Shown: piece after piece, positions 28,236-31,164 of the stretch
Position numbering within the stretch: the first letter of the stretch is position 1
Layout of the letters: each line of letters starts with the position of its first letter
From: a phage
Strand: one strand, 5' to 3'
DNA: 32,613 nt
NCBI GenBank assembly: GCA_033178465.1
Contig: GCA_033178465.1_4726.5
The notes under the pieces: model-generated
Told to the model about the DNA's origin: nothing
Database searches by the model: none
The model's input: only the letters and a program-made list of their open reading frames with translations
Program-made: the position numbers and the translations under genes

Positions 28236-28445
28236 ATGATTCCAGCTAACCCTCTTTTAAGTCTCAATCCTTTCCATAGCAATCCTGGTGTCGATCCGAT
28301 ACAGCCTGCTTTTTTATCACAGTTCCAGGCTGATTATGATGGCGATGTGGTAACTCGAACCCGTATCCGTCTGTTGAATCACCGCAAGAAAGGCCCAGGT
28401 AAAGGCAAAGTAAAAATCATTCAACGTTTAATCTCTTATGTATAA
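28236..28445 (+). CDS. small basic protein, KKGPxKGK family
   Basis: Track ORF 28218 (TTG) trimmed to the ATG at 28236 after TAAGGA; contains HRKKGPGKGKVKII, same patch as the 10532-11098 trio. Confidence 0.45.
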   Translation: MIPANPLLSLNPFHSNPGVDPIQPAFLSQFQADYDGDVVTRTRIRLLNHRKKGPGKGKVKIIQRLISYV

Positions 28446-28464
28446 ACCAACATTGTTCGATAAG

Positions 28465-28486
28465 TGCCGCCTACATATGGGCGGCA
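28465..28486 (+). terminator. stem-loop (TGCCGCC / GGCGGCA, 8-nt loop)
   Basis: 7-bp GC-rich stem 20 nt after the stop at 28445. Confidence 0.35.
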
Positions 28487-28618
28487 TTGCTCTGGTCTTT
28501 ATGTTGTACAACAGTTGTCAAGGAGGTATGTGGGTACGTGCGTTATTAATCGCACTCGCGTTAGCGGTGTTTCTAAAATTTGAATCATCGCTTTATCAGA
28601 AAAAGTAAGAAGGAGTTC

Positions 28619-28813
28619 ATGATGGGACATATGCTACTACGGGGATTAACGGGGATGGTTTTAGCATGGATGGTGATTGGGTTTTGTGGGATGATGTTCT
28701 TCATGGTAGATGAACCGGCTGCCCGAATTAACGTAGGGTTATGGTTCGTCTTCCTGATGATAGCGGTATTCGTTATCGTTACCTTGTTGAGGAATGTAGG
28801 AAAACACAAATAA
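28619..28813 (+). CDS. small membrane protein, two predicted TM helices (holin-like size class)
   Basis: Track ORF 28580 trimmed to the ATG after AAGGAG; hydrophobic stretches GLTGMVLAWMVIGFCGMMFFMV and LWFVFLMIAVFVIVTLL. Confidence 0.5.
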   Translation: MMGHMLLRGLTGMVLAWMVIGFCGMMFFMVDEPAARINVGLWFVFLMIAVFVIVTLLRNVGKHK

Positions 28814-28829
28814 ACGATCGGGAAAAGCC

Positions 28830-29201
28830 ATGAGTTTAAAGACATACGCAAAAATCTATTTCATTTTCACTTTTATAATGATTGGGATTTCTGCAACGAA
28901 TATCGATTTTGAAACAACGACGGAACGCGTTTATTACGTTATCCGAACCATCGTTTGTGTTATAGGGCAGCTTCCCCTTTTGTATATTTGTACGTGGTCG
29001 ACGCGTAACATCAGACGGTTTGTCGTGTATGGGTTCGCGTACGTTCTTTTCATGCTTGTTATGTGGCAGGTCGATGCTCGACTGAGTGATATCGCAAATA
29101 TCATCGCAACGGCGATCCTCAGTGCAACAAGCTGGTGTTTATTTTTACCGATGTGTCGTCGTGTCGAGGATGAAGGTTATGGGTATCACGGAGAATCTTA
29201 A
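28830..29201 (+). CDS. membrane protein, 3-4 predicted TM helices
   Basis: Track ORF; hydrophobic segments IYFIFTFIMIGI, IRTIVCVIGQLPLLYI, FVVYGFAYVLFMLVMW, IIATAILSATSWCLFL. Confidence 0.55.
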   Translation: MSLKTYAKIYFIFTFIMIGISATNIDFETTTERVYYVIRTIVCVIGQLPLLYICTWSTRNIRRFVVYGFAYVLFMLVMWQVDARLSDIANIIATAILSATSWCLFLPMCRRVEDEGYGYHGES

Positions 29202-29490
29202 GTTAACTAATCGCATCCTTGTCGATAGAGAAGTTGTTTTACGCGAGATACGAAGCGTGATGGCGATCTTTAATCTGGATCATCGATCCGCCATTATGTC
29301 TATTCTCTTGAATAAAACAACCTTTAATATCCGGGAGATACGTCGTATTCACAACGGTGTGGAGCGACGGCATAAATTAAGCGACGAACTCGTACATTGC
29401 GAGTTTATACCACATCAAGTCTATCGACGTATTTATCGCGATCCGTATGTTCGGGATAAATACAACCTATGGCTTGACGGTAGAGGTTAA
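29170..29490 (+). CDS. hypothetical protein
   Basis: Track ORF 29086..29490 trimmed to the first ATG near the end of the upstream gene; start uncertain (also ATG at 29179). Confidence 0.35.
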   Translation: MKVMGITENLKLTNRILVDREVVLREIRSVMAIFNLDHRSAIMSILLNKTTFNIREIRRIHNGVERRHKLSDELVHCEFIPHQVYRRIYRDPYVRDKYNLWLDGRG

Positions 29491-29507
29491 CATCTTTGAG
29501 AAACTAT

Positions 29508-29675
29508 ATGAATTCAAACGATGTACACCTTTACCGCGTTGGATACGGGAAATGGGTTCTGTTATCCAACGTTATGTTTATTGCCAAACCAGAGGAGACC
29601 GTATTTTCAGTACCGTTTATTTCTGTCGTGGATGTCGGGCAAACATCTGACGCTAACCTGCTGCCCGCTGAATAG
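29508..29675 (+). CDS. hypothetical small protein (55 aa); not in ORF track
   Basis: Hand translation MNSNDVHLYRVGYGKWVLLSNVMFIAKPEETVFSVPFISVVDVGQTSDANLLPAE; alternative to overlapping track ORF 29447..29650 in another frame. Confidence 0.3.
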   Translation: MNSNDVHLYRVGYGKWVLLSNVMFIAKPEETVFSVPFISVVDVGQTSDANLLPAE

Positions 29676-29742
29676 AACAACCCGATGACGGGATGCGTTA
29701 TCAAGACGCCAGTGGACAGCACCTTATCGTGAGGTTATTAAG

Positions 29743-30240
29743 ATGCAAGGTATTTTACACACGTTGATTTTAGGACTTGCTATGTTGCTTATCGCACCGT
29801 TCAGTCAAGCATCAGTGAACGCGGGGCCTAGAATCGATTGCCGGAAAGAGATCGTCGCATGTGCGGTGTATATGGAAGCCAGAGGCGAATCTGTAAAAGG
29901 GCAATACTCCGTGGCGTTTTTAATACATAATCGATCTATGGACTACCGATTCCCTACGAACGTCAGAGACGTCGTACTGCAAAGAGGTCAATTCCCCTGG
30001 ACAAAACAAAGGCGTATTGTCATACGCGATCACGCTGCTTTTGAGCGAGCAAGAGCAATAGCACGAGAGGTCGCAACATTACGTTATACTGACATTGCGG
30101 CTTACCATAAAGCCGACCCAACACGAGGAGCTGTATTCTTTAACGCGAAACATCTTCGCCCTAAACATTTCAGAAAACATGCTACCAATATCACCGTGGT
30201 AGATAGCCACATTTTCTTTGGTAAACGACGACACACGTAA
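29743..30240 (+). CDS. secreted SleB-like cell-wall hydrolase (Hydrolase_2 family), candidate endolysin
   Basis: GAGG upstream; signal peptide MQGILHTLILGLAMLLIAPFSQASVNA; signature CAVYMEARGES...GQYSVAFLIHNR...FPTNV...VVLQRGQFPW. Confidence 0.7.
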   Translation: MQGILHTLILGLAMLLIAPFSQASVNAGPRIDCRKEIVACAVYMEARGESVKGQYSVAFLIHNRSMDYRFPTNVRDVVLQRGQFPWTKQRRIVIRDHAAFERARAIAREVATLRYTDIAAYHKADPTRGAVFFNAKHLRPKHFRKHATNITVVDSHIFFGKRRHT

Positions 30241-30253
30241 AACAAATCCGTAT

Positions 30254-30280
30254 GCCCTTCCTGCGTAAGGCAGGAAGGGC
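30254..30280 (+). terminator. GC stem-loop (GCCCTTCCTGC-GTAAG-GCAGGAAGGGC) followed by TTATGCTG; terminator-like or regulatory
   Basis: 11-bp perfect stem 14 nt after the stop at 30240; same downstream box as at 819. Confidence 0.45.
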
Positions 30281-30333
30281 TTATGCTGTTAAACTGACTA
30301 AATGTAATCATCCTAATAAAGAAGGAAATCATC

Positions 30334-30591
30334 ATGAAAACGATCAAAGCAACTAAATCCGTTAAAACAAATAAAACTAACGTTCAGCCACTGCATCATA
30401 TCACGGTTTATCGTAACAAAGATAACGCAATCACCAAGTTCCGCGTCCGCGTAAAAGCGGCTGAATCCGTATTAGAGAAATTGGTTGATATGACGGTTTC
30501 TGTTGATGCTTACGATTCGTACCAGAAAGCAATGCTGGCGGCGATTCAAATCCGCGATAAAGCGCTGAACAACCCAATCAACGCATTTTAA
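30334..30591 (+). CDS. hypothetical protein
   Basis: Track ORF; AAGGA 9 nt upstream of ATG. Confidence 0.55.
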   Translation: MKTIKATKSVKTNKTNVQPLHHITVYRNKDNAITKFRVRVKAAESVLEKLVDMTVSVDAYDSYQKAMLAAIQIRDKALNNPINAF

Positions 30592-30612
30592 TTACTTAGC
30601 AACTTAGCAAAC

Positions 30613-30649
30613 GGTTCTTCTCTTCCTGAGGCTGTGGAGGGGAAGAACC
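30613..30649 (+). promoter_or_regulatory. long imperfect stem-loop immediately upstream of the RBS of 30664..31164, preceded by tandem CTTAGCAA repeat
   Basis: GGTTCTTCTCTTCC ... GGAGGGGAAGAACC gives about 14 bp with three G-U pairs; AAAGGAG RBS starts 2 nt after the 3' arm. Confidence 0.35.
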
Positions 30650-30663
30650 AGAAAGGAGTAATT

Positions 30664-31164
30664 ATGTTTTCTTTTGTTGTCACTGAAGAACAACTGGTGC
30701 GTTTTAAAGAGCGCGCACGGGCTGCTATCGAAGAAGGTGAAATCGAACCACGTATCTTACCAGCCTGCCGGGCGTTACTGGACGCGCCTGGTATCGCACC
30801 GATGTGGTCATGCGAAGGACACGATAACGTAACCCGTAAAGTGGTTGTTGATGGGAAAACAACCACAAAAGTTGTTCGTAAGCACCCGCACGTGATCGTT
30901 GCGGTAACAACCGAAGGGCTGTCTTACATAAACGCTATTGGTGAATGTTTATTACAACAGTCGGCTGATTACGTCTGGACCATCAATGCGAGTCGATTAT
31001 ACGATCCTACCCAGGAAGAAGAGTCGATGGACACACGTTATTGGGCGTGGGGTATCCATTCCGTTAATTACATAGATAGTGGCGATGAGACAATGGAGGA
31101 ACGTGGAGAACGGCTAAACGACGCTATTCTTGAAGCGGTAGAAAAGGTGAGAAGTCAGAATTAA
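30664..31164 (+). CDS. hypothetical protein
   Basis: Track ORF 30634 trimmed to the ATG after AAAGGAG. Confidence 0.55.
   Translation: MFSFVVTEEQLVRFKERARAAIEEGEIEPRILPACRALLDAPGIAPMWSCEGHDNVTRKVVVDGKTTTKVVRKHPHVIVAVTTEGLSYINAIGECLLQQSADYVWTINASRLYDPTQEEESMDTRYWAWGIHSVNYIDSGDETMEERGERLNDAILEAVEKVRSQN

Follow-up and report, generated by a model that had tools for sequence, protein, structure and literature searches.

A highly conserved, probably structured RNA segment precedes the endolysin gene of Goslar-like jumbo phages

Introduction

A gap of 252 nt separates a highly variable gene from the endolysin gene in a phage related to Escherichia phage vB_EcoM_Goslar, and the question raised by this locus is whether the gap holds a small protein-coding gene, and in which frame, or an element of another kind. 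The window (the whole stretch of DNA that was analysed, 32,613 nt) is approximately 96% identical to Goslar, a nucleus-forming jumbo phage. The gap lies between the homologues of Goslar gp099 and gp098, and no annotation is present for it in the GenBank or RefSeq records of Goslar. The first-pass annotation of the window had described two small overlapping open reading frames (ORFs) here, termed ORF A and ORF B below, and proposed that one of them probably fills the gap before the SleB-like hydrolase. Both ORFs were confirmed. ORF A has an ATG start, is rich in Cys and Arg, and shares 44 nt with the upstream gene, the end of which is at 29490, while ORF B runs from ATG 29508 to TAG 29673-29675 and is given by the ORF-listing tool as 59 aa from TTG 29496. 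A third-frame ORF (ORF C), a minus-strand ORF, a Shine-Dalgarno (SD) sequence for frame B, and the reading of the gap as structured RNA had been missed. The genes and ORFs considered are as follows.

29179 to 29490, plus strand: gp099 homologue, the upstream gene, 103 aa, highly variable as far as 29478
29447 to 29650, plus strand: ORF A, 67 aa, judged spurious
29508 to 29675 (or from TTG 29496), plus strand: ORF B, 55 aa (59 aa from the TTG), perhaps a leader ORF
29521 to 29688, plus strand: ORF C, in the third frame, 55 aa, judged spurious
29531 to 29722, minus strand: ORF of 63 aa
29743 to 30240, plus strand: endolysin, homologue of Goslar gp098, Hydrolase_2 (SleB-like), with an N-terminal signal-like segment

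The endolysin assignment is based upon a Pfam match to PF07486 Hydrolase_2 (E = 3.7e-16). With ORFs A, B, and C present, all three plus-strand frames are open across 29521-29647; a stop-free stretch of such length in all frames is not unusual, since by our estimate about three are expected by chance per 32 kb.

Conservation of the segment upstream of the endolysin gene

Related contigs were retrieved from IMG/VR, JGI, ENA, and Logan with an endolysin anchor and the ORF B peptide, and approximately 25 Goslar-like haplotypes with overall identities of 84-98% were obtained. Comparison of these sequences delimited a single conserved segment that includes the whole gap.

29479 to 29745, plus strand: ultraconserved block, proposed structured RNA leader, covering the final three codons of the gp099 homologue and extending to the ATG of the endolysin

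The block comprises 267 nt. Its identity was 97.0-99.2% in all but one of 18 related sequences, the exception being one relative (L030) with 91.7% identity, in which the tip of domain IV of the predicted fold (described below) is replaced. In the same genomes, the lowest identities were 61% for the gp100 homologue, 64% for the gp099 homologue, 84% for the endolysin, and 70% for the next intergenic region. A single relative (L025) illustrates the pattern, with values along the locus of 61% (gp100 homologue), 64% (gp099 homologue), 98.9% (block), 84.5% (endolysin), 69.9% (next intergenic region), and 87.2% (gp097 homologue). Segregating sites per 50 nt numbered 5, 4, 4, 3, and 1 across 29500-29749, compared with 10-30 elsewhere in approximately 6 kb, and the block is the least variable stretch within about that distance. 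Its left boundary is sharp, almost all third codon positions of the gp099 homologue being variable as far as 29478, and at the right boundary coding-type variation restarts at 29746. Inside the block, variation is confined to the substitution sites treated below, and two segments, 29479-29511 and 29624-29664, are invariant.

Variation within the block was then compared with that of real genes. Third codon positions were segregating at 52-79% in nine neighbouring genes, all of which display the classic excess at position 3 (e.g. 18/18/85 changes on positions 1/2/3 in the endolysin), compared with 13% in ORF A, 7% in ORF B, and 4% in ORF C. Counts on positions 1/2/3 were 4/2/7 for ORF A (outside the overlap), 2/7/4 for ORF B, 6/4/2 for ORF C, and 6/4/4 for the minus-strand ORF. 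Synonymous changes in ORFs A, B, and C numbered 5, 3, and 1, respectively, against approximately 3.6 expected from random substitutions of the same type (P = 0.26, 0.77, and 0.99). According to both the position counts and the synonymous counts, no frame carries a protein-coding signature, and would-be synonymous sites show 4-10 times the constraint found in real genes nearby. The first-pass annotation had named conservation of either frame in related phages as its check, and a lack of it in both as what would speak against the two ORFs. This lack was found in part: the frames are kept, solely because the underlying nucleotides are conserved, and protein-type conservation is present in none of them.

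The block could not be linked to a described element. No match to Rfam 15 was found for the block at E <= 10, or for the whole window at gathering thresholds, and tRNA and tmRNA scans were negative. Comparison of the block with E. coli genomes and with 185,579 species genomes gave no similarity, IMG/VR returned two known relatives only, and a low-stringency DNA search of GenBank phages gave no match except Goslar. Outside the clade, endolysin homologues reach no more than 46% identity and occur in unrelated phages; synteny is therefore not traceable further.

Predicted RNA fold of the block

The plus strand of 29479-29745 has a minimum free energy (MFE) of -89.9 kcal/mol, compared with -66.4 +/- 4.6 kcal/mol for dinucleotide shuffles (z = -5.11), and none of 200 shuffles was as stable. 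The minus strand was 14 kcal/mol weaker (-75.5 kcal/mol, z = -3.12). Among 180 sliding windows of 267 nt (mean z -0.83, sd 1.46) the block ranked in the top three; other stretches of the window, e.g. positions 1-267 (z = -5.5), fold as strongly. The single-sequence MFE structure was identical to the RNAalifold consensus of 11 haplotypes and contains 90 pairs, including 17 G-U pairs, arranged in four predicted domains. These are listed together with the endolysin SD.

29479 to 29535, plus strand: domain I, a 20-bp hairpin, -19.6 kcal/mol when folded alone, z = -5.15
29536 to 29572, plus strand: domain II, a 15-bp hairpin with a 9-bp perfect core, CGTTGGAT(G/A)/TATCCAACG, -17.3 kcal/mol when folded alone, z = -5.10
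29575 to 29641, plus strand: domain III, conserved in sequence, with an unsupported predicted fold, z = -0.70
29645 to 29735, plus strand: domain IV, a 21-bp interrupted stem with two small hairpins, -34.5 kcal/mol when folded alone, z = -4.91
29731 to 29734, plus strand: endolysin SD sequence GAGG, paired in the model with 29645-29648, with G29731 unpaired

Several translation signals of the locus lie within the predicted domains. The stems of domain I contain the frame-B SD (29483-29486) and TTG 29496, and ATG 29508 lies in its 12-nt apical loop, while the stop codon of the gp099 homologue (TAA, 29488-29490) spans an internal loop and the first pair of the upper stem. In domain IV the 5' strand (29645-29670) pairs with 29710-29735, including the endolysin SD; the two small hairpins are CCCG/CGGG (29681-29692) and GCGTT/GACGC (29695-29709), and the ORF B stop (29673-29675) is placed in the multiloop. 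Three of the four bases of the endolysin SD (29732-29734) pair with 29645-29648 in both the MFE and centroid structures, at a weak helix end. Strong sequestration of this SD was tested and proved unremarkable, its ensemble unpaired probability of 0.40 ranking 19 of 46 genes, i.e. an ordinary accessibility.

Substitutions and indels relative to the fold

Twenty-two substitutions in the block were read from DNA, and six further ones were inferred unambiguously from protein variants. In a structure that was itself predicted from one of the tested sequences, the 22 verified substitutions cost +5.4 kcal/mol over the whole block, compared with 22.5 +/- 7.2 kcal/mol for random substitutions of the same type (P = 0.009). 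Within domains I, II, and IV, a pair was broken by one of 14 verified substitutions where 5.7 were expected (P = 0.003), or by one of 17 with the inferred substitutions included (6.8 expected, P = 0.0008); domain III was set apart from these counts after the data were seen, a separation that its z-score justifies independently. Changes in domains I, II, and IV fell in unpaired or loop positions (29512, 29526, 29552, 29553, 29672, 29688, and 29694) or kept the pair, either as AU to GU (29527, 29550), as GU to AU or the reverse (29536, 29545, 29549), as UG to CG (29560, 29563), or as CG to UG (29665, 29689). The sole pair-breaking change was G29708A. All three substitutions in domain I were unpaired or pair-keeping, and all eight in domain II (six read from DNA and two inferred from protein) were exchanges between GU and AU, exchanges between UG and CG, or loop changes.

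Indels spared the helices as well. All four indel events within 29676-29742 fell in the hairpin loop after 29686, in the tip of domain IV, or in the spacer between SD and ATG. In L030 the replaced tip of domain IV is 7 nt shorter, and the basal stem and a GCGUU/AACGC hairpin persist. In another relative (L007), the CCCG hairpin gains an A-U pair through an inserted A combined with A29688U.

Domain III differed from the other domains, its predicted pairs being broken by five of eight substitutions. It also holds the one compensatory change of the data set, a CG to UA exchange formed by C29599U with G29615A in two relatives (L018 and L026). Diversity in the clade is low, this is the sole truly compensatory pair, and the covariation controls are weak, the observed score being reached by seven of 500 shuffles. 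Since domain III is conserved while its fold is unsupported, structure alone fails to explain the conservation. Loops and junctions of the block are also nearly invariant. This near-invariance, shared by domain III, points to further constraints on the sequence itself, which might come from tertiary contacts, processing sites, or a binding partner.

On balance, we consider it somewhat probable that the gap is occupied by a plus-strand structured RNA of approximately 267 nt (29479-29745), specific to Goslar-like phages and under strong selection at the nucleotide level, with ORF B at most a leader ORF. Among the explanations weighed, the most likely identity of the block is a structured leader in the endolysin mRNA that is specific to this clade.

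Evaluation of ORF B as a gene

The block could instead contain a genuine gene, with ORF B encoding a small beta-rich protein of the lysis cassette that was missed in the Goslar annotation; the nucleotide conservation would in that case come from constraint on the protein acting together with mRNA structure, or from the gene having spread recently. Both the gene and this account of its conservation are considered unlikely, and the evidence is mixed. The frame of ORF B, the peptide of which begins MNSNDVHLYRVGCGKW..., is open in all of the approximately 25 haplotypes. This holds even for L030, in which the sequence switches precisely at the ORF B stop and a stop codon is still found at the same codon. 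No indels occurred within ORF B, compared with the four events in the 67 nt after it. Because the block is so rarely substituted, 76% of random sets of same-type substitutions also keep the frame open, and the intact ORF B is therefore weak evidence for a gene. Furthermore, those 67 nt beyond the stop are as conserved as ORF B itself.

Initiation signals speak for translation of frame B more than had been recognised. The earlier statement that neither ORF has a strong ribosome-binding site is valid for the two ATGs only (duplex energies of +0.3 kcal/mol for ORF A and -2.7 kcal/mol for ATG 29508 of ORF B), because a GAGG (29483-29486) precedes TTG 29496 by 9 nt, with a duplex energy of -6.5 kcal/mol compared with -6.4 kcal/mol for the endolysin. 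ORF B is also predicted by gene callers in most related assemblies (metagenomic and NCBI). PGAP lists it as a hypothetical protein in Salmonella enterica assemblies with contigs of 240-250 kb, and IMG calls a 33-aa version starting at Met23. A frameshift from the gp099 homologue into frame B was considered and dropped, as TAG 29481 closes frame B and no slippery site lies between this TAG and the stop of the gp099 homologue.

Coding potential was scored with a 3-periodic Markov model trained on 46 long ORFs of the window, the kind of genome-trained check that the first-pass annotation had suggested for deciding between its two ORFs. Real in-frame pieces of 168 nt scored +0.113 +/- 0.062 per codon and off-frames -0.22 to -0.27. 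By comparison, ORFs A, B, and C scored -0.016, -0.032, and -0.120, respectively, so neither of the two ORFs scored as real genes do. The score of ORF B corresponds to the 2nd percentile of real genes and is exceeded by each of the 18 small annotated Goslar genes, which have a mean of +0.088 per codon, a minimum of -0.001, and strongly negative off-frames. Relative to these small genes, the low scores of all three ORFs indicate that the gap lacks the strong periodicity of genes. Frame B was nonetheless the best of the three on their shared segment, with a gene-like composition (G 0.38 at position 1 and 0.09 at position 2).

Predicted structure is likewise in favour of ORF B, its AlphaFold2 model (single sequence, uncalibrated against shuffled peptides) having a pLDDT of 76.1, a pTM of 0.48, and three beta strands, compared with a pLDDT of 40.7 and a pTM of 0.24 for ORF A. 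The substitutions point the other way. Of the changes in ORF B, 10 are non-synonymous and 3 are synonymous, where 3.7 synonymous ones would be expected in the absence of selection (P = 0.77), and they are not concentrated on third codon positions. At least 20 amino-acid variants occur over the 55 residues of near-identical genomes, including L18P (in at least 19 contigs), W16R, L19S, F24S, Y13C, H7C, P28S, S39Y, and P53L, and six of these (L18P, W16R, L19S, F24S, Y13C, and P53L) fall in or near the predicted strands. Several such radical changes kept RNA pairing, namely L18P (GU to GC), L19S (GU to GC), and P53L (CG to UG), all read from DNA, and W16R, inferred from protein, falls in an RNA loop.

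No homologues of ORF B outside the clade were found with tblastn, a word-indexed search, or an exhaustive HMMER search, and neither ORF A nor ORF B matched a family in Pfam or PHROGs. A weak tblastn match of ORF B in Salmonella phage pSal-SNUABM-04 lies inside a 1674-aa gene without synteny and is therefore attributed to chance; two HMMER matches (P0008 and P0009) were translation artefacts of tandem repeats with no BLASTP alignment to ORF B.

ORF B is the only plausible translated frame. It is best viewed as an ORF that may be translated, with its sequence dictated by the RNA and no signal of selection on the peptide. The proposal of a gap filled by one of these two ORFs thus has to be given up for ORF A, which was discarded, and is retained for ORF B as the only viable ORF, the main content of the gap being the conserved and probably structured RNA.

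Other explanations for the conservation

Recombination and a constraint on the DNA itself are both possible sources of the conservation, and both account less well than a structured RNA for the sharp boundaries that relatives share and for the strand-specific G-U pattern. Under the first, the block would be functionless, a short segment recently spread by recombination beside a hypervariable cassette, and its folding would be incidental. The neighbourhood is indeed mosaic, the gp100 and gp099 homologues having been replaced in three relatives (L007, L024, and L029) and flanks of different lineages being combined in a fourth (L028), and the ratio of synonymous to non-synonymous changes in every frame is that of neutral change. 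This origin is nevertheless improbable, given that independent lineages have the same sharp boundaries, which fall on functional landmarks (left, the frame-B SD; right, the endolysin ATG), that substitutions are biased toward structure-neutral ones (P = 0.003-0.01), and that the thermodynamic stability is extreme. Furthermore, block haplotypes carry substitutions common to groups of relatives, suggesting that the block has been diverging within the clade, slowly.

A constraint on DNA, e.g. a cluster of protein-binding sites, a signal for replication or packaging, or a promoter region used by the phage RNA polymerases, would account for the conserved loops and the unsupported domain III, which pure RNA pairing leaves unexplained. 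Promoters of Goslar-like phages are poorly defined (PMC11077065), and no sigma-70-like sites were found in 28300-30700. Such an element is very improbable, as the 17 G-U pairs among the 90 can pair as plus-strand RNA only, many observed changes convert GU to AU or GC and vice versa, the plus strand folds better than the minus strand by the 14 kcal/mol given above, and the element occurs only once in the Goslar genome.

The reading of ORF A as a real gene overlapping the upstream gene is already close to refuted: seven of its 13 substitutions fall on its third positions and five are synonymous, an excess that is not significant (P = 0.26), while its ATG is present in a minority of haplotypes and replaced in Goslar and most relatives (by ACC, GCA, GCC, ACA, and others), it has no SD, its composition by codon position is not gene-like, its AlphaFold2 model is poor, a search of 5.8 billion predicted proteins gave no match to it, it was never predicted by any gene caller, and tblastn found it in Goslar only, beyond chance matches. 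ORF A is a chance ORF and should not be called. ORF C also has a composition unlike that of genes, with one synonymous change among 12 and no SD.

Proposed mode of action

As a structured leader, the block would be transcribed within the mRNA that carries the endolysin gene, fold into the hairpin domains I, II, and IV, and act in cis on endolysin expression. An RNA-seq time course of Goslar infection has been published (bioRxiv 10.1101/2023.09.20.558163), and no transcript map of the region from the gp099 homologue to the endolysin was found in the literature. The positions of the stop codons within the fold outline one possible route. A ribosome terminating at the stop of the gp099 homologue, inside domain I, would unfold this domain and expose the frame-B start, and translation of ORF B as far as its stop at 29673 would lead the ribosome to displace the 5' strand of domain IV from its partner and free the endolysin SD. 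The role of ORF B would then lie in its open frame and not in its peptide. Such a relay of termination-reinitiation and helix opening, from the gp099 homologue through ORF B to the endolysin, is suggested by the geometry of the locus and is put forward tentatively, as a doubtful part of the structured RNA reading. The case for coupling or sequestration is weakened because the endolysin SD is not unusually occluded.

A broader version of the structured RNA reading can be entertained, with rather less confidence than the presence of the RNA itself. The block may represent an undescribed RNA family of Goslar-like nucleus-forming jumbo phages, a multi-domain riboregulator of approximately 265 nt that gates endolysin synthesis and thereby lysis timing. 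Regulation could proceed through the ribosome relay or through binding of a small molecule or of a factor from phage or host, and the near-invariance of the loops and domain III would then mark tertiary contacts or an interface with a ligand or protein.

Comparison with known systems and implications

Phage-carried riboswitches and large RNAs include a c-di-GMP riboswitch in the lysis module of a Clostridioides phage, as well as GOLLD and ROOL. Similar to these, the block is a sizeable conserved phage RNA with multiple predicted hairpins beside lysis genes; unlike them, it has no match in Rfam 15 and no identifiable ligand pocket or expression platform, and is confined to one narrow clade. Control by coupling is known from MS2-type RNA phages, in which coat, replicase, and lysis genes are coupled through long-range RNA pairing, and from the leader-peptide control of ermC. 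The block resembles these systems in that an upstream ORF ends inside a predicted helix whose other strand carries the SD of the next gene. Both the stop of the gp099 homologue and that of ORF B lie inside domains, and the coupling proposed here is read from this geometry.

Another close parallel concerns a lysis enzyme. The lysozyme gene e of phage T4 has an inhibitory leader structure, with similar structures at soc, gene 49, and I-TevI, and the leader of gene e blocks lysozyme translation from long early transcripts (PMC3014915). In both cases a phage RNA structure, predicted in the present one, lies directly upstream of the gene for a lysis enzyme, with the SD placed in a helix, and a leader of this type is a way to stop read-through transcripts from making lysin too early. 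In T4 the element consists of one short hairpin, which opens when an internal late promoter starts the transcript. The block differs in its length of about 265 nt, its three or four domains, its embedded ORF, and the lack of a known internal promoter; moreover, the endolysin SD lies at a weak helix end with an ordinary predicted accessibility.

An unannotated small phage ORFan would be the ordinary explanation of such a gap, and ORF B has the size, position, and start signals of many small hypothetical genes of this genome and is predicted by gene callers. It does not behave as the 18 small annotated genes do (an average of +0.09 per codon with negative off-frames), or as the nine neighbouring genes, in which third-position variation is dominant. 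In annotation, ORF B should accordingly be given at most as a hypothetical small or leader ORF, and the gap should carry a conserved-RNA feature. The locus also illustrates that an ORF can look perfectly "conserved" among relatives merely through an overlapping RNA, leading to a misjudged coding potential.

Read as a structured leader, the block is a new, clade-restricted example of such an element before a phage lysis gene. With a narrow clade and a mechanism deduced from geometry, its wider significance is moderate. Within the clade, it represents the strongest constraint in about 6 kb of a mosaic, fast-evolving lysis neighbourhood, directly before an endolysin that bears a signal-like segment. 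Nucleus-forming jumbo phages produce their mRNAs within the phage nucleus, and translation takes place outside this compartment. If the block controls translation of the lysin, it would provide a handle on lysis timing in these phages.

Variable genes upstream and downstream of the conserved block

The region at 28801-29302 comprises the homologue of gp100 (Goslar gene numbering), a multi-pass membrane protein, together with the 5' portion of the gp099 homologue. Comparison with related Goslar-like sequences revealed that L007, L024, and L029 have a much shorter segment in its place, and no alignment of the region was possible in these three. This replacement identifies a hypervariable cassette immediately upstream of the ultraconserved block, the proposed structured RNA leader located between the gp099 homologue and the endolysin gene. 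Another presence/absence polymorphism among the relatives is the gp096 homologue (30655-31158, 166 aa, phrog_7413), which is missing in several of them, including the L008 group and L007.

Lysis genes and transcription

Two small open reading frames encoding hydrophobic, membrane-like sequences were located as follows.

28438-28608: small ORF, 56 aa
28622-28813: small ORF, 63 aa, gp101 homologue

Neither yielded a family match in Pfam or PHROGs. These two ORFs and the gp100 homologue may jointly make up the holin component of a lysis cassette. The endolysin itself (29743-30240) begins with an N-terminal signal-peptide or SAR-like segment (MQGILHTLILGLAMLLIAPFSQA). Its closest homologues outside the clade share at most 46% identity and are carried by unrelated, smaller phages (106-181 kb); on the basis of these sequence comparisons, the endolysin gene therefore looks horizontally acquired.

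A hairpin lies directly 3' of the endolysin gene and likely represents a transcript end.

30257-30281: GC-rich hairpin, CCCTTCCTGC-GTAAG-GCAGGAAGGG

Sliding 267-nt windows around this hairpin gave folding-energy z values, relative to shuffled sequences, of approximately -4.6 to -4.9. A minus-strand Rfam match to queA at the same position was weak (16.8 bits vs a cut-off of 52.6) and was attributed to chance. Besides the ultraconserved block, a second very strongly structured stretch was observed at the start of the sequence. Its minimum free energy is -88 kcal/mol, and none of 200 shuffles folded as stably (z = -5.47).

1-267, + strand: structured stretch in the 3'-terminal part of an ORF running off the window, directly upstream of a metallophosphoesterase-like gene

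No sigma-70-like promoters were matched within 28300-30700, compared with 5.6 +/- 2.5 expected from shuffles, a result that fits transcription by RNA polymerases of the phage itself.

Possible hosts of related phages

Goslar-like contigs of 240-250 kb are contained in many Salmonella enterica isolate assemblies at NCBI. Relatives of ORF B, the 55-aa frame inside the ultraconserved block, occur in those assemblies (P0020-P0023) and are labelled by PGAP as hypothetical proteins. The presence of these contigs suggests that phages of this group infect Salmonella or persist there in a carrier state.
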